Of a stretch of DNA of 64,000 bases, positions 40,752 through 64,000 are shown piece by piece. The notes beneath the pieces are model-generated. The model saw nothing but the letters and a program-made list of their open reading frames with translations, had not been told where the DNA came from and did not search any database. Each line of letters begins with the position of its first letter. Position 1 is the stretch's first letter. The stretch spans positions 224,001-288,000 of the forward strand of contig OY759353.1 in assembly GCA_963662315.1 (NCBI GenBank). The letters run 5' to 3'. Both the position numbers and the translations under genes were made by a program. Source of the stretch: Geopsychrobacteraceae bacterium (GTDB lineage: Bacteria; Desulfobacterota; Desulfuromonadia; Desulfuromonadales; Geopsychrobacteraceae).

Positions 40752-40979
40752 GGGAATTCTCCTTCGTTTTTTTGTAGACGATGTGAAGGAGAGTGTCAAT
40801 TTGTCATTAATTAAACCGGCAACAATTGTGGAGTCAGCACTTTTGGAGTGTTTCAATAAAAACCTAAAACCTCGGCGGGTCACGGCCCGCCAGCCGGTTT
40901 AGGGCACGACACCGCAATTTGGGTGTTTGTAACTTAGTGTTTTTGTTTATTCACTGTTTTAAGTTGGTAACGGCCGATG

Positions 40980-50074: not shown

Positions 50075-50164
50075 ATATTTCTGTGAGCGTTGGACGACTG
50101 ATGGCTTCTGAAAAGAGGGGCTTGATTGTTTGCGATAGGTACTTAAATTAAAAAAGCCTGGGTC

Positions 50165-50678
50165 GCCGGGTCCCGGCCCGGCAGCCCACGCTGCTGTCGC
50201 AGCTAATGGGCAAGAGCGCTAGTTGAGAGACAGGCTGCCGTGGGTCTATCGGTTTTCGTTACTAAACCCATCATCAATAAATAATACGGTTCTGGCCATC
50301 AGGCGGGGGTGAGCCGTCAGGCCGGCTGGTAAATTGCTGGTTGTCTCTTGGTGCCCAACGACGCCCGAACACGGACATATTAAAGAGGGCTTTTTGTGCT
50401 TACTATTTTTAGCCTGATTGTGAAAAATAGTAAGGCGCAGTGTGGGGGCGCGACCCCGTGACTTTGATATGGTTTTGACCGTTTCGTTCCAATCAATAAA
50501 GTCTTAAGGTCGCCGGGTCCCGGCCCGGCAGCCGGGTTCATTTTTCCCAGCGATGGAAAAACGAACCAAAAAGATCTTTGAAGGTCAAACACACTGACGA
50601 TAGGTGTATGGGACTACGTTTCAACGTTACAGGGTGAAATTAACCGGCAGCCCACGCTGCTGACGCAGCTAACGGGCA
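50165..50678 (+). repeat. Structured repeat element, cluster 1: internally deleted copy (50165-50459), linker, 5' partial copy (50512-50678)
   Basis: Long blocks identical to the 60.6-63.0 kb array, e.g. GCCGGGTCCCGGCCCGGCAGCCGGGTTCATTTTTCCCAGCGATGGAAAAACGAACCAAAAAGATC. Confidence 0.95.
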
Positions 50679-50749
50679 GGTTTTATTAGGGGAGAATTGT
50701 GACTTTTGGCTTTCTGTTGCTGCGTGTTACTTAAGTCTTTAAGTATTCA

Positions 50750-51235
50750 CTATTTAATTTTCAGTTCATCCCGTAGCGCTCTTCTTGCCGCTTTATCAAC
50801 CAAGCGAAAGATCTGATCGGGCAAAGTCCGTTGCGCCGCTGGGAGGTGTCCGCACCGTTTACAGAACTCCAGCTGATAGTTATCCAGTTGCTCGAAAAAT
50901 TCCCGATAGAGATCAGCATTATTCAGCGGTCGCCCCAGGCGTGAGCAAAAATGTTTTTCCTCTAGACTCCGGCGGCGTTGTGGCAGTTCGCAGATGGTTT
51001 GGGAATCGCAGTGGATGGTCAGTTGGGCTCCAGGGGGAACGAATTCCTGTAGTGCCCAGAGCAGAGTCTGCATTTCCAGTCGGGCCGCAGTGGTTTGCGC
51101 AAAAGGTTTGACGCGAATCTGACTGATCATGTCTTCTAGAGATGTCTGGTCCGAACTGATCAGCAGGCAGGCGCCGTAGCCGATACCGGTTGTGGGGTCG
51201 GCGCTACCGTCACAGAAGAGTTGCAGTTCTGCCAT
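50750..51235 (-). CDS. Ribonuclease HI-like protein
   Basis: FCDGS, RLEMQ, HCDSQ, NADLY, GH, LVDKAA: the four acidic catalytic positions appear present. Confidence 0.8.
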   Translation of the reverse strand: MAELQLFCDGSADPTTGIGYGACLLISSDQTSLEDMISQIRVKPFAQTTAARLEMQTLLWALQEFVPPGAQLTIHCDSQTICELPQRRRSLEEKHFCSRLGRPLNNADLYREFFEQLDNYQLEFCKRCGHLPAAQRTLPDQIFRLVDKAARRALRDELKIK

Positions 51236-51251
51236 GGTGGTCTGCTGATGA

Positions 51252-51479
51252 TCAGTCGGGGTGATTGCGGAAGGCGATGTACAGATCTTCGACCTGACGC
51301 CTGGCCCAGGGGGTACGGCGCAGAAATTTCAGGCTTGATTTGACCGATGGGTCGTTATTGAAACAGCGGATCTGGATGATTTGCCCCAGTTCTTCCCAGC
51401 CGTAGTAGTCAGAAAGATCGGTGACAATGCGTTCCAAGGTGATACCGTGCAACGGGTCTTTGTTTTGTTGGTCGGCCAT
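51252..51479 (-). CDS. Small DNA-binding protein, VF530/DUF2132-like
   Basis: DPLHGITLE...YGWEELG...[27 protein letters not shown] family pattern. Confidence 0.85.
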
Positions 51480-51617
51480 GCGTGGTGAATCCTTTTTGGG
51501 TAAGTGTCGCTGGAGTTTAGGTGGTTTTTTGGGTTGGATGCAAGGGTAAAACGGCAATGGGCGTGGGTTGGACGTTTCAGTGTGGTTCTATTGATTCATC
51601 AAGACAACATCAAGACC

Positions 51618-52248
51618 GCCGGGTCCCGGCCCTGCAGCCGGGTTCATTTTTCCCAGCGATGGAAAAACGAACCAAAAAGATCTTTGAAGGTCAAACACAC
51701 TGACGATAGGTGTATGGGACTACGTTTCAACGTTACAGGGTGAAATTAACCGGCAGCCCACGCTGCTTCGCAGCTAACGGGCAAGAGTGCTTGTTGATAG
51801 GTATACTGTCCTGGGTCTATCGGTTTTCGTTATTAACCCATCATCAATAAATAATGCGGTTCTGGCCATCAGGCGCGATTTGAGCCGTCAGGCCGGCTGG
51901 TTAATTGCTGGTTGTCTCTTTGTGTCCAACGACGCCCGAACACGGACATATAAAAAGGGCTTTTTGTGCTTACTATTTTTAGCCTGATTGTGAAAAATAG
52001 TAAGGCACAGTGTGGGGGCGCAACCCCACGACTTTGATATGATTTTGACTGTTTCATTTCAATCAATAAAGTCTTAAGACCGCCGGGTCCCGGCCCGGCA
52101 GCCGGGTTCATTTTTCCCAGCGATGGAAAAACGAACCAAAAAGATCTTGTAAGGTCAAGGTAACTGACGATAGCTGTGTTGGACTACGTTTGAACATTGC
52201 AGGGTGCAACTAACTGGCAGCCCACGCTGCTATCGCAGCTAACGGGCA
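51618..52248 (+). repeat. Structured repeat element, cluster 2: full copy (51618-52029), linker, 5' partial copy (52082-52248)
   Basis: Same conserved blocks as clusters 1 and 3; start-to-start distance 464 bp. Confidence 0.95.
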
Positions 52249-52352
52249 AAGGGCTGTAGAGGAGAATTATTGTGCTGCTGGCTTTACGGGTTGTTGCTAC
52301 TGAATGCTTAATAGTATTAACTAGTTAAAGAGATGTTTTAAACGGACAAGTA

Positions 52353-52380
52353 GAGCGCCTCTGGTGCGTCAGAGGCGCTC
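52353..52380 (-). terminator. Hairpin downstream of the rhodanese remnant
   Basis: GAGCGCCTCTG...CAGAGGCGCTC 11-bp perfect stem. Confidence 0.55.
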
Positions 52381-52397
52381 TGCTTGCCATAGTTTAC

Positions 52398-52732
52398 TTA
52401 GTGTTTCTTCTCAAAGGTATAGCTGCCATCAGCCTTCACAATAATGGTAGCGTCCAGATACTGCAGGTTGCTTTTGTTGCCATAGTCGGTATCCAGAATC
52501 GCATAGAAAGCACCACCGGCACGGCTGCCAGTTGCACAGTGGAGGGCGATGCGGCCCTCTTTGGCCAGTTTATTCAGGTTTTGAGGCAGAAGCGGCTTGG
52601 GAATATTGACGGCACGTGGCCTTCTTCAAACTTAACGGCAGGACGCGCATCAATCAGCTGGAATGACTTATTCTGCTCCAGTGTTTCTGTCACCTGTGTC
52701 GCACCGGCAAACTCTTTTCTGAACAGCTCCAT
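52398..52732 (-). pseudogene. Frameshifted rhodanese-domain remnant
   Basis: FQLIDARPAVKFEEGHVP in one frame continues in another as AVNIPKPLLPQNLNKLAKEGRIALHCATGSRAGGAFY...FEKKH*; frameshift near 52612. Confidence 0.75.
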
Positions 52733-52740
52733 CACTTCCT

Positions 52741-52941
52741 GAGCGTCTCGGTGAACTTCCTGCGGACAAGATTATTGTCACCACCTGTCCGCATAAGGAT
52801 CGGGCGATTATTGCCATGACCTACCTGCGCTCTAAAGGGATTGCCGCGCGTTATTTAACCGACGGGCTGCTTGGGCTGCTGGCCAATCTGAGAGGCGATG
52901 ATGCCAAGTATTTTCTGGAGATGTATAAGCAGAACAAATAG
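52741..52941 (+). pseudogene. 3' remnant of a second rhodanese/sulfurtransferase gene
   Basis: ERLGELPADKIIVTTCPHKDRAIIAMTYLRSKGIAARYLTDGLLG...NK*; the N-terminal half of the domain is missing. Confidence 0.7.
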
Positions 52942-52944
52942 CTG

Positions 52945-54735
52945 TCATTCCTGCTTTGCATTGTTTTGAAATACCGCACCTTCAATGCGGTTTCTGCCAT
53001 TGTTTTTGGCTTTGTAAAGCAGAGCGTCACATGCATTGAGCAGCTCTTCGGCTTGAACTTCCTGTGCACCGGTCAGGGTCAATACGCCGATACTCACAGT
53101 CACATGATCTGAAACTTTCGAGCCTTTATGGGGAAAGGCCAGGGTTTCAATCCCGCACCGAACCTGTTCTGCCAGTGCCAGGGCATCTTGATGCTCAGTT
53201 GCCGGCAGGATACAGACAAATTCTTCACCACCATAGCGGGCGACCGTGTCCGTTGGGCGCTTAAGTGTTTTTGCAAAGACCAGCGCTGTGGCCCGAAGAC
53301 AGTCATCTCCGTGTAAATGGCCATAGATGTCATTGAATTGTTTAAAGTAATCTATGTCCACCAAAAACAGCGAGAGCGGCGCCCCGGACCGGTTTTGACG
53401 TTTAATTTCACTGGTGAAGGTTTCATCAAAAAGGCGCCGGTTCACCAGACCGGTCAGCGAATCTTTGCTGGCCAATTTGGCCAGTTCCCGGTTCATGGTT
53501 TCGATTTCGCGCGTTGACGTGTCAATCAGGCGGTGCAGGGCGCGCATGGTACGGAACTGCCGTGATTCTTCCAATTTGGGATCATACTTTTCTGAGTCTG
53601 ATGCCGCTTCAGGATCTCCTTCGGAGAGGGACAAAACGGTCATCGTCTGGCTGAAGAAATACGGCTTTCCGGATTTATGACTGAAATATTCGCCGTAGCA
53701 GAAGAACCCGCAGGCCGGTGCAAGGTCTTCCAGCGATGACAGTTCCACCGTAATATCTGCGCCCAGGATCCACTTCCGGGAGACACAGGAGTAGATGAAA
53801 ATCGATTGCGGATTGTAGGCGCGCACCTCTTCATTGATCAGCTGAGAGCCAATCGCCAGCAGTCCGGCGTGGCAGAAGCCGAAGCGTAACTGTTCCCCGG
53901 GATAGAAGTCGTGGATATAATGAAACGATCCATCCTCGTTGACGCCCGTAGCATGGATCGCCATGGGAATACCGTCGCGTTCGATAATCAGGGGAAAATC
54001 GGCAGCGGACAAAGGCAGGCCGTCAGCAACTTCCTGCCCCAGATAGTGGGCGTAAATGTCATAGGGGGACATGTCGTCAATGGAATAGACGACCGGTCCC
54101 TGGGCTTCGGTGATGGTCAGTTTTTTGCCGATGGGAACCCAGCTCAGGTTGTAGGCGTTATCCGCTCTGAGTGCCTTGCCGGATAATGATGCTGTTGCAA
54201 CCCCGTGTTCGGTCAGTCCGTGCTGAGTGAACACAAAAGTTATCGCGCCTTTACCGTTATCTCCAGCCTGTCCGCCGGCAATGATGGCACTACCGCTGCG
54301 GGAATGGATGGCATCCAGCAGTGGTTCGCCATTGATTGTGTGCTTGTTCTTGAGCCCGCAGCCGAGCACGATAAGCGCTTTGGTATCAGGCTGGCACAGC
54401 GTATCTCCGATGTCCTGCCCGGCGCGCACCAGATCATCATTTTGGGTGACAAGGTGGGAGCAGACACGCGAGTGTTCAAACAGCGAAATGCTGATCAGAA
54501 TCTGTCCGTCCAGAGAGAGGGCAGCGATAATCTCACCAGCGGTGCTGGTTCCGATCAGGGGTACGCCGGGAAAACATTGGGTGATGTGTGAGACAAGCTC
54601 AAGAACGACAGCTTGATCCTGTTCGCCACTGAAGATCTGAATCAGAACCTGGTCCGGGGGGTAAGAAAGCACCTGATCCTTCACGGCGCTCAGATCGGCA
54701 TAATCGTTATAGACGATATTGATAGTTTTGATCAT
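52945..54735 (-). CDS. FIST-domain diguanylate cyclase
   Basis: GTSTAGEI, AGGQAGD, YSCVSR, GFFCYGE (FIST N/C), then DSLTGLVNRR, RPTD I-site, RYGGEEF. Confidence 0.92.
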   Translation of the reverse strand: MIKTINIVYNDYADLSAVKDQVLSYPPDQVLIQIFSGEQDQAVVLELVSHITQCFPGVPLIGTSTAGEIIAALSLDGQILISISLFEHSRVCSHLVTQNDDLVRAGQDIGDTLCQPDTKALIVLGCGLKNKHTINGEPLLDAIHSRSGSAIIAGGQAGDNGKGAITFVFTQHGLTEHGVATASLSGKALRADNAYNLSWVPIGKKLTITEAQGPVVYSIDDMSPYDIYAHYLGQEVADGLPLSAADFPLIIERDGIPMAIHATGVNEDGSFHYIHDFYPGEQLRFGFCHAGLLAIGSQLINEEVRAYNPQSIFIYSCVSRKWILGADITVELSSLEDLAPACGFFCYGEYFSHKSGKPYFFSQTMTVLSLSEGDPEAASDSEKYDPKLEESRQFRTMRALHRLIDTSTREIETMNRELAKLASKDSLTGLVNRRLFDETFTSEIKRQNRSGAPLSLFLVDIDYFKQFNDIYGHLHGDDCLRATALVFAKTLKRPTDTVARYGGEEFVCILPATEHQDALALAEQVRCGIETLAFPHKGSKVSDHVTVSIGVLTLTGAQEVQAEELLNACDALLYKAKNNGRNRIEGAVFQNNAKQE

Positions 54736-54936
54736 AGGCGCTCATGTCTTTGCCGGTTAAGTTGTGAGTATGCTATTCATCTGCACGATCTTGAGTATAC
54801 CAAGTGCGTCAATATTCACGCAGCGCCCCCTCCACGAATCTGCCTTCCCCCCGGGTCGAGCTGATAAGTGAATTCCGATCAGTATGTGATAGGTTGGATT
54901 TTAATTCAACACAAAGGAAGGTATTGACCGATAACC

Positions 54937-56136
54937 CTATTCAGATCTTAAGGCATCGATAGGGTCAAGACGTGCCGCCCGCCAGGCTGGCCACACGCCG
55001 GCAAGCAGGCCGATGAGGATCGCCAGCCCTTCGGCAATGAGCAGGTATTCCAGGCGCGGGATGAACGGCAACGCCGGGATCGCCAGGTGCAGCGCGGCAA
55101 GCCCGGCCAGACCTAAGAGCATACCGGTGAGTCCCCCTAGCGCCCCAAGAATAGCTGCTTCGGCCAGGAACAGTTGCAGGATGAGCCCCGGTGTGGCACC
55201 AAGGGCGGTCAGTAGCCCGATCTCGGTTCGGCGTTCGGCGATAGCGATGGTCATCAAGGTGAGGATGCCGACCCCGCCGGTGAACAGGGCGATGCCACCC
55301 AGGGCACCAATGGCAAAAGTCAGGATATTCAAGACCTTGTTCAGTGAGGCGAGCATCTGGTCCTGTGATTCAACGGTGAAATCCTCCGATCCGTGGCGCT
55401 CATTCAGGCGGCGCGATAAGCGTTTGACCATGGTCGCGGAACTCTGCTCGGGTGCATAGAGAATGTCGATCTCCATTAAACCGTCGCGGTTGAACAGCTG
55501 CAGGGCCAGGGCGGTGGGAATGTAAACGGCGTCGTCAATATCGAAGCCGAGGATCTGCCCCTTAGGAGCCAGCACGCCGACGACCCGAAAACTGAGGCCA
55601 CCAATGCGGACCTTTTTACCCAGCGGGTTGGCCTGGTCAAACAGTGCGCGCGCCAGGGTATGCCCGAGCATAACCACTGGTCGCGGGGCAATCAGGTCAT
55701 CTTCCGGCAGAAATCTGCCCCGCGCCATGTCCATGGTCCACACTTTTCTAGCGCCTGAATCAGCGCCAATGGCCAGGGTGCGGCGCGAGCGTCCGGCATA
55801 TTCAGCAGTAAGGTTGCCGCTGACCACCGGGGTCATGGCGACGACTCCCGGTACGGTTTTCAGACTTTGGGCATCTTCCAGGGTTAGCGGTCGCTGCGTG
55901 TCAATAATGCTGATGGAAAACCCGGTGGTATTGGCTTTGCCCGGAACGATGGCAATCAGGTGGGTACCGAACTGGGTAAACTGGTGGACCAGATAACGCT
56001 GCAGCCCGGCGCCCAGGCCGGTAAGCATGACCACCGCTGCAATACCGACGGCAATGGCGAGCATGGTCAGCAGCGAACGCAGTCGTTCGGCGGCAAGGGT
56101 ACGCAGGGTGAAGCGGCTCAGGTCGACAGGGCGCAT
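54937..56136 (-). CDS. MacB/FtsX-family ABC permease
   Basis: LRSLLTMLAIAVGIAAVV, ERRTEIGLLTALGA, PAWRAARLDPIDALRSE. Confidence 0.92.
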   Translation of the reverse strand: MRPVDLSRFTLRTLAAERLRSLLTMLAIAVGIAAVVMLTGLGAGLQRYLVHQFTQFGTHLIAIVPGKANTTGFSISIIDTQRPLTLEDAQSLKTVPGVVAMTPVVSGNLTAEYAGRSRRTLAIGADSGARKVWTMDMARGRFLPEDDLIAPRPVVMLGHTLARALFDQANPLGKKVRIGGLSFRVVGVLAPKGQILGFDIDDAVYIPTALALQLFNRDGLMEIDILYAPEQSSATMVKRLSRRLNERHGSEDFTVESQDQMLASLNKVLNILTFAIGALGGIALFTGGVGILTLMTIAIAERRTEIGLLTALGATPGLILQLFLAEAAILGALGGLTGMLLGLAGLAALHLAIPALPFIPRLEYLLIAEGLAILIGLLAGVWPAWRAARLDPIDALRSE

Positions 56137-56138
56137 AG

Positions 56139-57347
56139 TCAGGCTCCTTTTAACGCCTGCACCGGATCCAGTCGTGCCGCACGGCGGGCCGGCAGCCAGC
56201 CGAACAGCAAGCCTGCACCAAAAGCGGTTCCGGCCGCCGCAAGGTAGGCCCAAAACGGGGTCACGACCGGAAAACTGGGATAGATGCTGGCCAAGAGCAG
56301 GACGCCAGCGCGACCGAGAAGCGTGCCGACACTGGCGCCAAGGGCACTGACCAGCAGGGCTTCGAGCAGAAACAGGCGCAGGATAACCACTCGTGGTGCG
56401 CCGAGTGCCATCAACAGACCAACCTCACTGCGTCGTTGACTGACGCTCACCAGCATGACGTTCATGATAATGATTCCGGCGACCACCAGGCTGATCGCGG
56501 CAATGCCGGCCACACTCAAGGTCAGGACACTGAAAATCTGATCAAAGGTGGACAGGACCGCATCCTGCGTGACCAGGGTGAAATCCTCTTCCCCCTGATG
56601 CAGGCCGATCAGTACCCGTCGTGCCGCTTCCTTGACGCCAGGCAAGTGGTTGCGACTGTCAGCCTGGATCAGGATGCGGAACAGGGCCGGGTTGTCAAAC
56701 AGGGCCTGGGCACTGGCGACCGGAATGATGGCCGCTTCATCAAGATTCTGCCCCAATGAAGTGCCCTGTTTACCCAGAATGCCGACAACCCGGAAACGCC
56801 GGTCTCCGAGCCGCAGCCACTGGCCCAAGGGGGACTGGTTCCTGAATAACTCATGGGCCAGCGTCGTGCCGATGACGGTGACGGCCTGCGCTTGGTTCAG
56901 ATCGCCGGGGGGCAAGAATTCGCCACGTCCTATAGACAGATTTCGGGTTTGTTGCAGGCTGGTATCGGAACCGATCAGGGTGGTCTGGCGGGTGTGTGAC
57001 GCGTGACTGATGTCGATGATGCCGATCGAGACCGGAGACACCGCCTCAACATGGGGCAGGCGGCGCAGAGCTTCAACATCACGCAGGGTGAGGTCCCGTT
57101 CTGTTTCGAATATCAATCCGGGGGGACCGCCGCTGCGCTCGGTTTTTCCCGGCAGAACAATCAACAAGTCGCTCCCCAGCTGAGAAAATTCACTCAGAAT
57201 ATATTGTCTGGCCCCCTCGCCAAGAGCGGTCAGCAAAACCACTGCTATAACACCGATGGCCGCAGCCAGAATGACCAGAGCGGTCCGCAGCCTGGCACTG
57301 AGCAGTGAATGCCAGGCAAAACCGAGGTGGTCACGCAGGAGCATCAT
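56139..57347 (-). CDS. MacB/FtsX-family ABC permease
   Basis: GIIIMNVMLVSVSQRRSEVGL, PARRAARLDPVQAL. Confidence 0.92.
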   Translation of the reverse strand: MMLLRDHLGFAWHSLLSARLRTALVILAAAIGVIAVVLLTALGEGARQYILSEFSQLGSDLLIVLPGKTERSGGPPGLIFETERDLTLRDVEALRRLPHVEAVSPVSIGIIDISHASHTRQTTLIGSDTSLQQTRNLSIGRGEFLPPGDLNQAQAVTVIGTTLAHELFRNQSPLGQWLRLGDRRFRVVGILGKQGTSLGQNLDEAAIIPVASAQALFDNPALFRILIQADSRNHLPGVKEAARRVLIGLHQGEEDFTLVTQDAVLSTFDQIFSVLTLSVAGIAAISLVVAGIIIMNVMLVSVSQRRSEVGLLMALGAPRVVILRLFLLEALLVSALGASVGTLLGRAGVLLLASIYPSFPVVTPFWAYLAAAGTAFGAGLLFGWLPARRAARLDPVQALKGA

Positions 57348-58018
57348 GGGTGACGATCCTCGGTGATGCGGCCATCATGCAGCTTGATGGCGCGTGGTGC
57401 CCGCGCACCGATCTCCGGGTCATGAGTAACGACAATCAGGGTGATCCCTTCCGTATTGAGCTTTTCGAGCAGGTCAATAACTTCTGCCCCTGAACGGCTG
57501 TCGAGGTTGCCGGTTGGTTCGTCCGCTAACAGCAGTGGCGGGCGCAGTACTGTGGCGCGGGCTATGGCAACCCGCTGGCACTGCCCGCCGGACAGTTGGT
57601 TGGGGCGGTGATGGGCACGTTCGCTGAGACCTACGGAGATTAAGGCCTGTTCCACTTTAGCGCGGCGTTCGTTGGCCGATATCCCAGACAGGACCAGCGG
57701 CAGAGCGACATTATCATAGGCCGACAGGCGAGCCAGCAGGTGAAAAGACTGAAAAACAAACCCGATGCGGGTGCTGCGCAGGCTGGCACGCTGGTCTTCA
57801 TTCAGATTCTGCGTGTCATGCCCTTCAAGCGAATAAATGCCGAGCGTCGGGCGATCAAGAAGACCGAGGATATTCAGTAGGGTCGATTTGCCGGAACCTG
57901 ACGGGCCCATCAGGGAAATATACTCGCCTGCGTCAATGTGCAGATTAACCTCGGCCAGGGCGTGAACATCGCTGTCTCCGACCCGGTAAAAACGGGAAAG
58001 ATCCTTCAGCTCGATCAT
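57344..58018 (-). CDS. ABC ATP-binding protein (MacB/LolD type)
   Basis: [38 protein letters not shown]. Confidence 0.95.
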
Positions 58019-59181
58019 TGCCCCGCTCCGTCAGTGGCTGCCGCAGCCACAGCTTCTTTGGCCGTTACGCCGGCCGCAACACCTTCGTCATCAAAATTGA
58101 GCACAATCCGCTCACCTGGCTGTACCCCTTGCGTCACTTCGGTCCAGCGCCAGTTGGCCAGCCCTGTGGTGACCGGGCGCCTTGAGATCAGCCCCGTAGC
58201 GGGATCAAAGATCAGTACGGCATGATCTTCCATGAGAGTTTCGCTGGGCAGGCGTATGACATTGGTGCGCTGATCAAGAATGATTTCGGCATCGGCGCTA
58301 TAGCCCGGAAGCAGCTCAGTTGAGGCGGATGTGTCAACCAAAGCCAGTTCCACGGTAACGAAACGGGCCTGTTTCTCTTTATCTTCGACATAAGCGCCGA
58401 TGCGTCTGACGCGGGCCTCAAGCAGTTGACCACGAAAGGCATCCAGAGAGACGCGGGCCGGCATGTCAATACGCACGGCTGCTGCATCGACTTCGTCAAT
58501 CGGGGCTTCAACATAAATGCAGCCATATTCAACCAGATCGACAGTCGGTGGGGTGGCGATGCCGGGTGGCGACGGGGTGGTAATCTCGAACAACTCACCG
58601 TTCAGCTCGGCGATGATGCCATTAAACGGCGCGCGCACGATGGTGCGGTCGAGTTGAGCGTCGAGTACGGCGAAACGGGCCCTGGTCATGGCGACCTGGG
58701 CCTGACTGGCCTGGCATTGGGCGTGCTGGCTCATTGCCTGGGACTGGGCTTTGTCGGCGCTTTCGGCGGAGACCAACCCTTCCGGGAGCAGATTGTTCTG
58801 GCGGGTTGCTTCACGCTTGGCCTGGCTCGCCAGAGTACAGGCTGCCTGAGCCTGTGCTTGCGCGACTTGCAGTTCCTTTTCGGTCAGGGCACGGTTGGCT
58901 TTGATATCGTCATTCCACAGCTCAACCAGGGTATCCCCCTGTTTAACCTGGGCCCCTTTGTGGAAGGGGAGGCGAATGATCTGGCCACTGATGGAAGGGG
59001 AGAGCTTGGCGCGCCGACACGCGGTTACCGTACCGGCCCGGGTATTGCTGGCGGTTGCCTCAACGGTGCCCCGCTCTACGCTGTACAGGCGAACATAGAC
59101 TGGCTTAGGCCGCTGTATCCACCACCACAAGGACGCGCTGGCAATAATAAAAACACAGATCCAAAGAGTGCGTTTTAGCAT
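58015..59181 (-). CDS. Periplasmic adaptor (MacA/HlyD-type membrane fusion protein)
   Basis: N-terminal TM, lipoyl-like halves (KGAQVKQGDTL; RAPFNGII) around a coiled coil. Confidence 0.9.
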   Translation of the reverse strand: MLKRTLWICVFIIASASLWWWIQRPKPVYVRLYSVERGTVEATASNTRAGTVTACRRAKLSPSISGQIIRLPFHKGAQVKQGDTLVELWNDDIKANRALTEKELQVAQAQAQAACTLASQAKREATRQNNLLPEGLVSAESADKAQSQAMSQHAQCQASQAQVAMTRARFAVLDAQLDRTIVRAPFNGIIAELNGELFEITTPSPPGIATPPTVDLVEYGCIYVEAPIDEVDAAAVRIDMPARVSLDAFRGQLLEARVRRIGAYVEDKEKQARFVTVELALVDTSASTELLPGYSADAEIILDQRTNVIRLPSETLMEDHAVLIFDPATGLISRRPVTTGLANWRWTEVTQGVQPGERIVLNFDDEGVAAGVTAKEAVAAAATDGAGQ

Positions 59182-59470
59182 GACCTGACTCCTGGGGAAC
59201 AGGTGTTGTGTAATGCTGTATCTGTCTTAAAGAATACCACATCACTCAAACAGCGGGTTTCGCGATCTGCGTTGTCAGGCGCGCTGATCGCATACTCGCT
59301 ACCCTGGACCATAACAACTCTTATTCTTTGGATCTTATTAAGGATTTACCGTGTTTGATATATTTAGCTTTACGTGAAAATTAGAATTCTATATTGACAC
59401 GAAATTAGATTAAGCCAATAATGTTTTTGTCGTATGTCAACGCGCTAACATTTTTGCCACGGGTTCAGAG

Positions 59471-60526
59471 GTGATGGGAACAAAGTTCAATTCTGAAGAG
59501 AACTCACAGGATACTTTTCCAGACGCATATGAGCAGATGAAGCAAATGCTGCTTGAGCAGGAAGAAACGATCAAAGCTCTTGAACAGGCGGTTGGCGATG
59601 CCGGCAACCAGCAGTTGACAGCTGAATTTGAAAGTCTGGAAATGCATCAGATCCTTTCAGCAACGGCTGATCCGATCTGGGCCGTTCGTGATGATGGTAT
59701 TGTTATCCGCGCCAATCAGGCCATGCTGGATTTGCTGGGCAAAGATGAGTTCGAGGTTATCGGACAGCGCTGCTCAGATCTGATCAATTTTAGCTGTTGT
59801 CAAGGGGAGGATTGTCCCCTTAAAAACATTAAAAAACGGCAAAGGCATGAAATCGAGCTGTTTTTTAATGGTGAATACTACAGTCTGCTCTCTTCTCCTC
59901 TGATCACCATTGTGGGTACCGAAGCTGTCGTTGGTCATTTCAGAAATATCACCTTTCGTAAACAGACTGAGCAGCAGCTTGAAATGTTGAATAAAAAACT
60001 CGCTGCCGCAGCAAATATTGACGGGCTGACCCAGATTGCCAATCGGCGCTCTTTTAATGAAACTTTTGAGCGCGAATGGTTGCGCCATAAGCGTAATAAA
60101 ATGACTCTGTCGCTGGTCCTGATCGATATCGACTTCTTTAAAAAATATAATGATTACTATGGTCATTCCTCTGGGGATGATTGCCTTATCAAGGTAGCTT
60201 CCGCCTTACAGTCTGCCGTGAAACGGCCAGTCGATCTGGCCGCAAGGTATGGCGGTGAGGAATTTGTTGTGCTGCTGCCGGAAACGCCGATAGAAGGGGC
60301 CATTTGTGTCGCCGAGCGTATTGCAGAGGCTATCGCCGCGCTGCGTATTGAGCATCATGAATCAGAGGTTTTTGACCATGTGACGGTCAGCCAGGGGGCG
60401 GCTTCAATTGATCCTGATGGCGAGCTGAAAGCAGTCAGGCTGATTGAGATGGCTGATGAGGCTCTGTATGCGGCAAAAGAGCGCGGGCGGAATTGTTATG
60501 TGGATTATCATACGCTTAACCCTTGA
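59471..60526 (+). CDS. PAS-domain diguanylate cyclase
   Basis: PAS (IRANQAMLDLLG), DGLTQIANRR, RPVD I-site, RYGGEEF. Confidence 0.92.
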   Translation: MMGTKFNSEENSQDTFPDAYEQMKQMLLEQEETIKALEQAVGDAGNQQLTAEFESLEMHQILSATADPIWAVRDDGIVIRANQAMLDLLGKDEFEVIGQRCSDLINFSCCQGEDCPLKNIKKRQRHEIELFFNGEYYSLLSSPLITIVGTEAVVGHFRNITFRKQTEQQLEMLNKKLAAAANIDGLTQIANRRSFNETFEREWLRHKRNKMTLSLVLIDIDFFKKYNDYYGHSSGDDCLIKVASALQSAVKRPVDLAARYGGEEFVVLLPETPIEGAICVAERIAEAIAALRIEHHESEVFDHVTVSQGAASIDPDGELKAVRLIEMADEALYAAKERGRNCYVDYHTLNP

Positions 60527-60583
60527 GTTTTTGATTTCTCCTGTGTGCGATTGCGCTCATCACATCTTCTCTTCTTAGTTTAA

Positions 60584-60625
60584 AAAAACAATACTGCCGG
60601 GTCCTTGCCCGGCAGTATTGTTTTT
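60584..60625. terminator. Bidirectional terminator-like hairpin at the left edge of the array
   Basis: AAAAACAATACTGCCGGG-TCCTTG-CCCGGCAGTATTGTTTTT, 18-bp perfect stem. Confidence 0.8.
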
Positions 60626-60633
60626 CACTACTA

Positions 60634-63001
60634 AAACCCATCATCCATCAATAATGCGGTTCTGGCCATCAGGCGGGTTTGAGCCGTCAGGCCGGTCAGT
60701 CAATTGCTGGTTGCCTCTTGACGAACAACGACGCCCGAACACGGACATATGAAAAGGGCTTTTTGTGCTTACTATTTTTAGCCTGATTGTGAAAAATAGT
60801 AAGGCGCAGTGCGTGGGCGCGACCCCGTGACTTTGCTTGTCTCATTCCATCAATAAAGTCTTAAAACCACCGGGTCCCGGCCCGGCAGCCGGGTTCATTT
60901 TTCCCAGCGATGGAAAAACGAACCAAAAAGATCTTGCAAGGTCAAGGTAACTGACGATAGTCGTGTGGGACTACGTTTCAACGTTGCGAGGTGGAATGAA
61001 CCGGAAGCCCACGCTGCTGTCGCAGCTAACGGGCAAAAGGCGCTAGTTGATTGGCGGACTGCTGTGGGTCTATCGATTTTCGCTCCTAAACCCATCATCA
61101 ATAAATAATACGGTTCTGGCCATCAGGCGGGGGTGAGCCGTCAGGCCGGTCAGTCAATTTCTGGCTGTTTCTTGAAAAACAACGACGCCCGAACACGGAC
61201 ATATTAAAGAGGGCTTTTTGTGCTTACTATTTTTAGCCTGATTGTGAAAAATAGTAAGGCGCAGTGCGGGGGCGCAACACCGCGACTTTGCTTGTTTCTT
61301 TCAAATCATAAAAGACAAAGTCGCCGGGTCCCGGCCCGGCAGCCGGGTTCATTTTTCCCAGCGATGGAAAAACGAACCAAAAAGATCTTGTAAGGTCAAG
61401 GTAACTGACGATAGCTGTGTTGGGCTACGTTTGAACGTTGCAGGATGCAACTAACTGGCAGCCCACGCTGCTTCGCAGCTAACGGGCAAAAGGCGTTAGC
61501 TGATTGGCGGACTGCTGTGGGTCTATCGATTTTCGCTCCTAAACCCATCATCTATCAATAATGCGGTTCTGGCCATCAGGCGGGTTTGAGCCGTCAGGCC
61601 GGCTGGTCAATTTCTGGTTGCTTCTTGACGCACAACGACGCCCGAACACGGACATATTAAAGAGGGCTTTTTGTGCTTACTATTTTTAGCTTGATTGTGA
61701 AAAATAGTAAGGCGCAGTGCGGGGGCGCAACACCGCGACTTTGCATGTTTCTTTCAAATCATAAAAGACAAAGTCGCCGGGTCCCGGCCCGGCAGCCGGG
61801 TTCATTTTTCCCAGCGATGGAAAAACGAACCAAAAAGATCTTGTAAGGTCAAGTACACTGACGATAGCTGTGTTGGACTACGTTTGAACGTTGCAGAATG
61901 TACAATTAAGCGGCAGCCCACGCTGCTGTCGCAGCTAATGGGCAAGGGCGTTAGCTGGAAGACGAAGCATAGAGTTTCTATCGGTTTTCGCTCCTAAACC
62001 CATCATCAATAAATAATACGGTTCTGGCCATCAGGCGTGATCTGAGCCGTCAGGCCGGCTGTTCAATTTCTGGCTGTTTCTTGAAAAACAACGACGCCCG
62101 AACACGGACATATTAAAGAGGGCTTTTTGTGCTTACTATTTTTAGCTTGATTGTGAAAAATAGTAAGGCGCAGTACGGGGGCGCGACCCCGTGACTTTGC
62201 TTGTCTCATTCCATCAATAAAGTTTTAAGACCGCCGGGTCCCGGCCCGGCAGCCGGGTTCATTTTTCCCAGCGATGGAAAAACGAACCAAAAAGATCTTG
62301 TAAGGTCAAGGTAACTGACGATAGCTGTGTTGGACTACGTTTGAACATTGCAGGATGCAATTAAGCGGCAGCCCACGCTGCTGTCGCAGCTAACGGGCAA
62401 AAGGCGCTAGTTGATTGGCGGACTGCTGTGGGTCTATCGATTTTCGCTCCTAAACCCATCATCAATAAATAATACGGTTCTGGCCATCAGGCGTGATCTG
62501 AGCCGTCAGGCCGGCTGGTCAATTTCTGGTTGCTTCTTGACGCACAACGACGCCCGAACACGGACATATTAAAGAGGGCTTTTTGTGCTTACTATTTTTA
62601 GCTTGATTGTGAAAAATAGTAAGGCGCAGTGCGGGGGCGCGACCCCGTGACTTTGTTTGTCTCATTCCATCAATAAAGTCTTAAGACCGCCGGGTCCCGG
62701 CCCGGCAGCCGGGTTCATTTTTCCCAGCGATGGAAAAACGAACCAAAAAGATCTTTGAAGGTCAAGGTAACTGACGATAACAGTGAAGGGCTACGTTTGA
62801 ACGTTGCGAGGTGGAATGAACCGGCAGCCCACGCTGCTTCGCAGCTAACGGGCAAGGACGTTAGTTGGAAGACGAAGTATAGAGTTTCTATCGATTTTCG
62901 CTCCTAAACCCACCATCAATAAATAATACGGTCCTGGCCATCAGGCGGGTTTGAGCCGTCAGGCCGGCCATTCAATTGCTGGTTGCCTCTTAAATCACAA
63001 C
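60634..63001 (+). repeat. Tandem array of the structured element, ~455-bp period, about 5.2 units
   Basis: The CCGGGTCCCGGCCCGGC anchor recurs at 60870, 61324, 61777, 62234 and 62690 (periods 454, 453, 457, 456). No conserved long ORF. Confidence 0.97.
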
Positions 63002-63119
63002 AAAACCTAAGCGTGACCGCTTCCGGCAGGAAAAATTAAATGCTGAAAATATTGATAAACAAAGGTACTTTAATTGAGTATTCAATAATCAGCTGTGAAA
63101 ACCAAAAAGGAGTAGCATA

Positions 63120-63803
63120 TTGGCTCTGGACACACACAAGTATTATGCTGCAATTACCGGAGATGTGATCAACTCTTCTGCATTTAATGATAGCAATCGC
63201 GATCTGCTGCATGATTCCATCCAGAAAGTAGGTGCAGAGGTTTACAAGTTTTTCCCAGGGTTTCAGGTCGGGGATCTCTCTATCTTTCGGGGGGACAGTA
63301 TTCAATTTTTGCTTTCTGACCCAGTTGTCTCATTGCGTGTCGCACTGTTTTTCCGTGCCGCCTTTAAAGCGATCCTTCCGAAGCAGAAGGTTGATATGCG
63401 ATTGTCCATCGGGATAGGCACTGTCAGTTTTCTTCCCTCAACTGATCAAGGAGGTGCCGATGGGGAAGCGTACAGATTGTCAGGCGCCTCTTTGGATAAG
63501 CTTTCTGCAAAAGAGACCATGGCCATAAATGTTTCCAGTGAATGGGGAACAGATCTGCAGCGCAGGGCATTTCAGACAATCGCTGTTCTGCTTGGTTTTC
63601 AGGCCGGTGGCTGGACCAGTAAACAGGCGCTGGCAGTTAAATGGGGGATTTTGAATAAAACCCAAGAAGAAATCAGCCGACTCTGGCCTGAAACAGTGTC
63701 CAGGCAGGCCATTGCCAAAAACCTGGATGCGGCCGGCTTCTTTGCCGTTGAGCAGGGTTTGAGGTTTTTTGAGGAGAATAAATTTAACACTTGGCAACCT
63801 TGA
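63120..63803 (+). CDS. SatD-family protein
   Basis: YAAITGDVINSS, FRGDSIQ, RLSIGIG, DGEAYRLSG and a C-terminal HTH-like TQEEIS...VSRQAIAKNL; TTG start after AAGGAG. Confidence 0.78.
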   Translation: MALDTHKYYAAITGDVINSSAFNDSNRDLLHDSIQKVGAEVYKFFPGFQVGDLSIFRGDSIQFLLSDPVVSLRVALFFRAAFKAILPKQKVDMRLSIGIGTVSFLPSTDQGGADGEAYRLSGASLDKLSAKETMAINVSSEWGTDLQRRAFQTIAVLLGFQAGGWTSKQALAVKWGILNKTQEEISRLWPETVSRQAIAKNLDAAGFFAVEQGLRFFEENKFNTWQP

Positions 63804-63881
63804 AAGGTTGCTATTGATGAATGCAACCGCTTGGGGTTGCGTTATTGCTGTGCCGTTGAGGTCAGGCAATGAGGGGGGGAT

Positions 63882-64000
63882 GTGCAATTTCTAAATATAG
63901 CAATAGCTTTGGTTGCGGGGCACTTGCTCGGTGATTTTTGCTTGCAAAGCAATCTCATGGTTGCCAATAAAAAACATGTTGGCGTGCTTTTTATCCATGC
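63882..64000 (+). CDS. DUF3307-like membrane protein (5' part, truncated by the window end)
   Basis: GTG 63882 after GAGGGGG gives MQFLNIAIALVAGHLLGDFCLQSNLMVANKKHVGVLFIH; AxHLLGDFxLQ is the family's N-terminal motif. Confidence 0.75.
   Translation, partial: MQFLNIAIALVAGHLLGDFCLQSNLMVANKKHVGVLFIH

Follow-up and report, generated by a model that had tools for sequence, protein, structure and literature searches.

The 64,000-nt stretch of DNA analysed here (the window), taken from positions 224001-288000 of contig OY759353.1 of a Geopsychrobacteraceae bacterium, carries two arrays of a repeated element, E, which is an inverted duplication of one module, M, of about 190 nt. The conserved element measures about 385 nt and consists of two halves, arm B on the plus strand and arm A on the minus strand, each of which is also found alone. 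The fold of each arm is under selection on that arm's own strand. We tentatively read the family as selfish intergenic modules whose fold may act in RNA, as structured terminators or 3′-end units. The source replicon is a single-contig genome of 4.71 Mb, and the GC content is 48.9%. Coordinates up to 64,000 are window positions, and larger ones are genome positions.

Architecture of the element

Read on its own strand, M begins with a structured 5′ domain, followed by an H-type pseudoknot, a GC-rich hairpin with a loop of 5-6 nt, and a U-rich tract. In the pseudoknot, five nucleotides upstream of a 14-bp, AU-rich hairpin (HX) pair with the 5′ side of its loop, so that a GGGC-N stretch is joined to the first bases of this large loop. 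The 3′ ends of arms B and A face each other across a linker of 24-42 nt.

The inverted relationship between the arms was established with models built from one of them. Covariance model R1 (88 positions, 21 pairs) was derived from 51 B cores only, a core comprising the pseudoknot, HX and the GC-rich hairpin H5. In the window it finds seven copies on the plus strand (96-105 bits) and eight full-length copies on the minus strand (38-45 bits, E 1e-7 to 3e-9). When an arm B profile is run against 57 arm A sequences, there are 46 matches of near full length, all 46 of them on the opposite strand, with a best E of 1e-13. Since both the B-only profile and R1 match A on the opposite strand, A is the inverted homologue of B. 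The two arms are not complementary in detail, and no long joint hairpin is kept up. A long-range helix closing the whole element from 5′ to 3′ was rejected: its registers are inconsistent in an alignment examined by eye, and A is an inverted copy of B.

Array 2 is a tandem repeat at 60622-62991 with a period of 456, 5.2 copies and 89% matches (Tandem Repeats Finder, TRF). Its elements run from arm B (+) through the linker to arm A (-), and are separated by spacers of 45-70 nt. Array 1, at about 50145-52250, is interrupted, with two minus-strand genes breaking up the repeats. Their parts are as follows.

Array 2
60631-61037, 61085-61490, 61538-61946, 61993-62401 and 62449-62856, both strands: five complete elements E (TRF and covariance-model matches)
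60748-60835, 61203-61290, 61656-61743, 62112-62199 and 62568-62655, plus strand: arm B cores, with pseudoknot, HX and H5 (R1)
60862-60939, 61316-61393, 61769-61846, 62226-62303 and 62682-62759, minus strand: arm A cores, minus-strand copies of the same module (R1)
62856-63010, plus strand: incomplete last unit, made of a spacer and the 5′ part of arm B (nhmmer match, genome 286856-287010, query positions 2-157)

Array 1
50158-50227, minus strand: mini arm A, about 126 nt shorter, with the GC hairpin fused directly to the terminal stem GCCC..GGGC (weak R1 match, 15.8 bits)
50261-50680, both strands: first complete element E (nhmmer, R1)
51611-52250, both strands: second part of the array, a solitary arm A and then a complete element E at 51831-52250 (nhmmer, R1)
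50379-50466 and 51949-52036, plus strand: arm B cores (R1 matches)
50505-50582, 51611-51688 and 52075-52152, minus strand: arm A cores (R1 matches)

A second copy of the mini arm A lies at genome 2423159 (-), and in the mini form the junction falls at a repeated GGCAGCC. With their different inner stems, these two independent copies suggest a naturally occurring short variant and not a random deletion. Elsewhere in the window, a hairpin at 40854-40895 (GGCGGGTCACGGCCCGCC followed by AGCC) resembles that of arm A (67% to the reference copy); it adjoins an Fe-alcohol dehydrogenase gene and has no R1 match.

No Rfam 15 family matches the window at its gathering score, and the only match at E <= 1 between 50000 and 63200 is a chance microRNA (E 0.65). 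An earlier reading of the window made from its letters (the sequence-only reading) had raised the idea of self-cleavage, which finds no support here: no Rfam ribozyme appears at that threshold. On either strand, no open reading frame (ORF) of at least 15 aa is conserved across subfamilies, and a type I toxin acting through a small peptide was rejected on that ground.

Strand-specific pairing

To test pairing in the core, 124 distinct copies taken from this genome and its relatives were aligned to R1, every one in the sense of its own strand. In the core helices 97.3% of the cells pair, compared with 78.6 +/- 0.4% in shuffles, none of 500 reaching the observed value; the percentage must be discounted somewhat, as model-aligned rows are fitted to the helices of R1 and the paired fraction is inflated, the pseudoknot being exempt from this. 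When partners are slid along as a control, 42-55% pair. Changes on both sides are seen in 17 of the 21 core pairs, amounting to 389 compensatory cells, and in the A half double changes affect 15 of 23 RNAalifold pairs. The pseudoknot is absent from R1. Each of its five pairs is formed in 93-95% of rows and varies on both sides, and one of them shows all four Watson-Crick types (UA 41, GC 31, AU 23, CG 18).

The sequence-only reading had argued from compensatory changes between copies, and these do lie far above chance. The five copies of the last stem on which it drew are placed exactly: 52012-52029 (GTGGGG/CCCCAC), 62175-62192 (ACGGGG/CCCCGT), 62631-62648 (GCGGGG/CCCCGT), 50442-50459 (GTGGGG/CCCCGT) and 61266-61283 (GCGG../..CCGC). 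Its pairing of TGTGC with GCGCA (GCACA near 52006) holds as well, as do the variable loops that it described within GTCA..TGAC and GCTGC..GCAGC. Its GNRA loops do not: they are in fact loops of 5-6 nt (GCGCGA, GCGCAA, CGCAA) in which no pair closes GCGA or GCAA, and thus are not canonical tetraloops.

The strand on which each arm folds is read from its non-Watson-Crick pairs, counted over distinct rows:

Arm B read on the plus strand, 82 rows: Watson-Crick 1476, G-U 158, A-C 9, other 50
Arm A read on the minus strand, 42 rows: Watson-Crick 754, G-U 101, A-C 2, other 8

Read on the plus strand, the wobble positions of arm A are C-A mismatches. Strand-wise mutation bias is excluded as the cause, because the arms carry opposite wobble skews while lying about 30 nt apart on one DNA. 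The sequence-only reading had assigned the functional fold to the plus strand. This is true of arm B, to which belong all the stems behind its G-T argument (the last stem and TGTGC/GCGCA), and must be reversed for arm A, which contains the GTCA..TGAC and GCTGC..GCAGC stems and folds on the minus strand.

Two U-G pairs are common to both arms, one at the base of the long hairpin HX and the other at the base of the GC hairpin. The first is found in 110 of the 124 distinct rows. Among 37 distinct copies from other genera and species (17 loci, two of which had supplied seed sequences to R1), it is present in all 37 and the second in 28, with 97.8% pairing overall. Motif-anchored counts in MAFFT alignments of arm B agree in sense, with 29 GT against 3 AC in H5, 12 against 4 in H1 and 9 against 2 in the pseudoknot. 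When each hairpin is folded on both strands with RNAfold, B is favoured mostly on the plus strand and A mostly on the minus strand, a result confounded by the G+T skew (on the plus strand, 54.4% G+T in B and 45.7% in A).

Copy number, arrangement and distribution

An nhmmer search with a single unit finds 93 matches in the genome, and a profile search finds 146, counting both strands, in 49 loci. With a hidden Markov model of the core, the whole genome yields 118 cores, 58 on the plus strand and 60 on the minus strand, of which 13 are solitary. The 74 adjacent core pairs are either tail-to-tail (39, with gaps of 24-42 nt) or head-to-head (35, with 160-289 nt between cores), and never on the same strand; orientation alternates strictly within clusters, as it does in bacterial interspersed mosaic elements (BIMEs). 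At 11 loci in other genomes of the order, cores are again found in inverted pairs, six of them head-to-head and three tail-to-tail.

Among seven genomes of the genus, copy number differs strongly, with a few copies at one extreme and more than 70 at the other. At one polymorphic intergenic site, the full element is present here, arm B only in genome G067, and the site is empty in G068, G069 and G071, where the gap measures 51-63 nt; in G066 it is about 170 nt, again without the element. A neighbouring ancestral terminator hairpin is retained in all the genomes compared. At this one filled/empty site the ends of the element and a possible 5-bp duplication are ambiguous, and no parent insertion sequence (IS) or other parent element with the same ends was found.

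Across the order Desulfuromonadales, as the genome collection delimits it, R1 matches 128 of 151 genomes and 57 of 64 genera at E <= 1e-5. There are more than 1,500 such matches, and the scored matches in a single genome reach at least 29. A sample of 151 genomes drawn from elsewhere in the phylum gives no match at E <= 1e-8 apart from that of the window's own genome (0 of the 150 others). A scan of contigs for exact 18-mers returns 55 stretches, 10 of them from two Geopsychrobacteraceae assemblies and 45 from unrelated taxa, which are taken as chance. Plasmid and phage collections contain no match to the element, and no conserved partner gene was found.

A search of the literature on Geobacter and Desulfuromonadales repeats and RNA motifs found no description of the element. 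Three genome papers on Desulfuromonadales or Geobacter (PMC3543383, PMC2700814, PMC2996986) give unnamed "multicopy nucleotide sequences" in their supplements, and the element may already be listed among them as a raw repeat.

Terminator-like ends and the proposed role in RNA

In each arm, the GC hairpin and the U-rich tract look like an intrinsic terminator. Over 134 distinct copies, T makes up 57% and A 11% of the 15 sense-strand nucleotides that follow the hairpin. A scan with a terminator consensus finds 23 sites in 60400-63200, compared with 3.8 +/- 1.9 in shuffles, and these include H5 on the plus strand and its counterpart on the minus strand:

62174-62193, plus strand: H5 hairpin of arm B, then ACTTTGCTTG..., terminator-like (terminator scan, tail composition)
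61775-61794, minus strand: arm A counterpart of H5, reading GCCGGG CCGGGA CCCGGC on that strand, then ACTTTGTCTT, terminator-like (terminator scan)

Of ten copies made of arm B only, eight lie downstream of a co-oriented ORF, five of them within 60 nt (crude ORF calls).

The reading that we put forward, with some reserve, is that the fold of M acts in RNA. Transcription arriving from either side would meet a sense-oriented M, copy its structured domain and terminate in the linker. M would be a self-contained, structured 3′-end or terminator cassette, and the pair a bidirectional one. We infer that RNA is what folds, that termination does take place, and that the family is a selfish intergenic repeat spreading through insertion and through inverted pairs being duplicated in tandem. 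Taking together this role in cis and the independent small RNAs considered below, RNA is judged more likely to be the folded molecule, given that each sense strand has its U-tract, that the U-G pairs are invariant, that a pseudoknot is present and that the sequence is deeply conserved.

Several observations weigh against this proposal. Sigma-70-like promoters are not enriched in 60400-63200 (3, against 2.8 +/- 2.0 expected), implying that units inside an array would rarely be transcribed, which makes selection at the RNA level on every copy doubtful. No public RNA run is listed over 59400-63900. The fit to a bidirectional terminator is weak: by crude ORF calls over 52 loci, 32 have a co-oriented gene on the left, 26 a convergent gene on the right, and 15 both. 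At the polymorphic site, the ancestral terminator kept beside the insertion indicates that the element is not needed there. Pairing, too, has its exceptions. In the motif-anchored counts, stem B-H3 shows 13 GT against 22 AC, with a conserved C-A in 14 of 23 distinct rows, and a second conserved contrary mismatch lies in the 5′ domain, outside the 88-nt core of R1. Finally, folded single-stranded DNA (ssDNA) also tolerates G-T pairs, and an excess of wobbles cannot separate it from RNA.

Alternative explanations

A REP/BIME-like ssDNA mechanism is a serious rival, although we hold it to be doubtful. The arms would be recognised as ssDNA, on opposite strands, by a HUH transposase (a Y1 enzyme resembling the REP-associated tyrosine transposases, RAYTs) or by another recombinase, and the structure would be selected for mobility, as in repetitive extragenic palindromic (REP) sequences, BIMEs and REPINs. 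This would fit the strict alternation of orientation among the 74 neighbours, the numerous extragenic copies that are polymorphic between species, the lack of promoters, and the GC-rich imperfect palindromes, which form inverted pairs joined by short linkers. The genome has 12 matches to Y1_Tnp (PF01797). Four near-identical RAYT-like genes of 226 aa adjoin elements in this genome, and score 76.9 bits against NF047646 (REP-associated tyrosine transposase, cut-off 80) and 18.3 bits against IS200.

The association with RAYTs, however, does not extend to other genomes. Among 12 RAYT-homologue loci, strong element matches are found in only two, both from this genome, and one of the ten from relatives has a weak match at its edge. 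Across the order, M persists in 13 of 17 genomes that are RAYT-negative (E <= 1e-10), one of them with at least 29 copies, and 17 of the 20 listed genomes that are free of M have RAYT matches. The GC-hairpin patterns are not free REPs, as 59 of 62 and 43 of 59 matches in two scans fall inside elements. The lack of detailed complementarity between the arms means that no long REPIN hairpin is maintained, and in ssDNA it is hard to see what the U-rich tract behind each hairpin on its sense strand would do.

Two other candidate movers were rejected. TnpB with its omega RNA, as in IS200/IS605-derived palindrome-associated transposable elements, is excluded by zero matches to TnpB (PF07282) in the genome and by the position of the arms on opposite strands. 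A bridge RNA of the IS110 type was considered in view of seven IS110-family genes, but no complete element adjoins those examined (near 291290 and at 4201365-4208623). These genes include identical transposase genes of 342 aa, at 291290-292318 (+) and at 4201365-4202393, 4203396-4204424 and 4207595-4208623 (-).

An unlikely alternative on the RNA side is a multicopy family of small RNAs (sRNAs), in which each M would be an sRNA gene of about 190 nt with its own promoter, acting in trans, for example by binding protein or RNA; two modules head to head would in that case be genes transcribed divergently. Sequence, loops and the invariant U-G pairs are conserved order-wide, and a pseudoknot followed by a terminator is the usual build of a bacterial sRNA. 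Of the 11 loci in other members of the order, 6 are isolated head-to-head pairs, and the array upstream of a SatD-like gene recurs in G068. Against it, no promoter is conserved, and the scan for promoters finds no more than chance would give. Subfamilies have wholly different sequences ahead of arm B, in some copies unrelated intron sequence reaches the first bases of the module, and in two subfamilies the spacer carries a small terminator-like hairpin instead of a promoter. The range in copy number among congeners and the lack of a conserved partner gene also speak against it.

The sequence-only reading had pointed to one plus-strand structured RNA over the whole unit of about 455 nt, possibly self-cleaving. 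Arm B does fold on the plus strand, and the plus-strand fold of the whole unit has a z of -2.9. This reading is largely refuted, and very improbable, because the wobble pattern of arm A is that of the minus strand: its 101 G-U pairs, against 2 A-C, become 101 mismatches on the plus strand. The unit folds at least as well on the minus strand (z -3.7). A terminator-like hairpin with its U-tract stands in mid-unit on the plus strand, B and A occur alone, and Rfam offers no ribozyme. Least credible of all is a nucleoid site, a partition site or the like, in which a dimeric protein would bind a palindrome or cruciform in double-stranded DNA (dsDNA). The two-fold pseudo-symmetry of the core favours it, but a cruciform needs both strands paired, whereas a wobble on either strand here leaves a mismatch on its complement, the two arms being opposite in sense, and a covarying pseudoknot is meaningless in dsDNA. 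On this point the sequence-only reading, which had preferred a strand-specific intrastrand fold to a symmetric cruciform, is strongly supported by the excess of G-U over A-C and by the pseudoknot.

Implications

If the terminator or 3′-end reading is correct, the whole order carries from tens to more than 100 copies per genome of a pseudoknotted, terminator-ended module arranged in inverted pairs. Metal and sulfur reducers of environmental importance belong to this order. The module would be a large new family for RNA databases and annotation, and its arrays, which are currently unannotated, break assemblies. It would also provide a natural system for studying how elements with folds on opposite strands spread and are tolerated, as well as candidates for portable terminators that work in both directions. 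That arms so close together have opposite wobble skews is a clean internal control, and makes strand-specific structural selection readable from genomic repeats alone.

A bolder possibility, which we consider improbable, is that M is a structured RNA class new to science and specific to one order. In its strongest form, copies would spread like short interspersed nuclear elements (SINEs), via an RNA intermediate and a reverse transcriptase, and genomes of the order contain many reverse transcriptases. Alternatively, such a class may have a conserved cellular role as a protein-binding or termination-control RNA, which would explain its order-wide conservation.

Genomic context

Within array 1, the two interrupting genes sit exactly between two A arms and behave like a cargo cassette:

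50750-51235, minus strand: RNase H-like gene (Pfam PF00075, E 5e-8)
51252-51557, minus strand: VF530 DNA-binding protein gene (Pfam PF09905, E 1e-33)

Downstream of array 2, the SatD-like gene lies at 63120-63803 (+), its Pfam match being weak (22.5 bits, below the cut-off). A membrane-protein ORF follows (genome 287882-288592), and then a solitary GC hairpin at 288617.

Elsewhere in the genome, an integron integrase is encoded at 2835995-2836939 (-) (TIGR02249, 480.7 bits, compared with a cut-off of 265), and a cassette array is present. Sites resembling attC are found at 2840672, 2844761, 2846204, 2848604, 4230306, 4231251, 4244190 and 4382000, with further attC clusters far from the integrase, at about 4.23-4.38 Mb. 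The attC sites of this genome read ATCAACCGG...CCGGTTAT.

At seven loci, one to three copies of the element lie in antisense inside ORF-less derivatives of a group II intron (near 1038255, 1040419, 1042546, 2848519, 2916949, 4230222 and 4381913; L123, L143). These derivatives match Rfam RF02001 with up to 132 bits, show C-terminal fragments of a maturase, and in some cases sit in attC sites. The composite of intron and element seems to have spread as a unit, in which case part of the copy number of the element is hitch-hiking.

At least nine cassettes encode proteins with a common N-terminus, MRLVAARDIT..., and variable C-termini, each followed by differing small ORFs. Examples are L125:2663-3799 (-), 4205504-4206673, 4209805-4210935, 4211995-4213098, 3854426-3855475 and 3863642-3864781. 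The C-terminus of one family member matches the bacterial EndoU nuclease (PF14436), and the whole looks like a polymorphic toxin-immunity array. A solitary A arm lies 165-177 nt upstream of each MRLVAARDIT gene start examined, upstream of a promoter-like TTGACT-N16-TATCCT. Three of the identical IS110-family genes are within this toxin-cassette region, which is rich in solitary A arms.

Comparison with known systems

The REP/BIME/REPIN-RAYT systems are the closest in arrangement: they too are extragenic, high-copy, GC-rich imperfect palindromes that form alternating clusters with two kinds of linker, often at the 3′ ends of genes. In both cases the structure of one strand matters, and RAYT-like genes are present in this genome. 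Unlike the 20-40-nt hairpin of a REP, M is about 190 nt long and has a 5′ domain and a covarying pseudoknot; its hairpins are not found as free REPs, and it shows no conserved linkage to, or co-occurrence with, RAYTs. REPs are usually specific to a species or genus, whereas M is conserved across a whole order.

Transcribed repeats resembling miniature inverted-repeat transposable elements (MITEs), such as Correia/NEMIS of Neisseria, ERIC of enterobacteria and BOX of pneumococci, are likewise intergenic and modular, with inverted symmetry. BOX consists of boxA, a repeated boxB and boxC, and MITE-like repeats fold as RNA when they are co-transcribed and can affect mRNA ends. The arms of E are inverted homologues over their whole length. 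At its exact ends E has no clear terminal inverted repeats, no clear target-site duplication is seen, a parent IS was not found, and the arms fold independently, each with its pseudoknot, rather than pairing with each other.

Integron attC sites have in common with M a strand-specific fold, structure that is more conserved than sequence, and gene cassettes lying between sites, and this genome does have an integron. An attC site measures 57-141 nt, folds on the bottom strand only and stands in an array next to intI. M, by contrast, occurs in at least 49 loci far from intI, its arms lie on opposite strands, and it has no R″/R′ core sites. The identification of M with attC was rejected, as the true attC sites of the genome are a different sequence of about 75 nt.

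Among multicopy sRNAs and type I toxin-antitoxin repeats, such as the long direct repeats (LDR) of Escherichia coli, one also finds tandem units of several hundred nucleotides that contain structured RNAs and terminators, but M has neither a conserved small ORF on either strand nor a conserved promoter. What the element shares with intrinsic terminators, including bidirectional ones, is a GC-rich stem with a U-tract behind it: each arm has this arrangement on its sense strand, and the two face each other. In M, about 150 nt of conserved structured sequence with a pseudoknot precede the hairpin, and the whole is repeated as an order-wide family. As far as checked, a covarying pseudoknot, paired arms folding on opposite strands, and conservation throughout an order are features unreported for structured intergenic repeat families.

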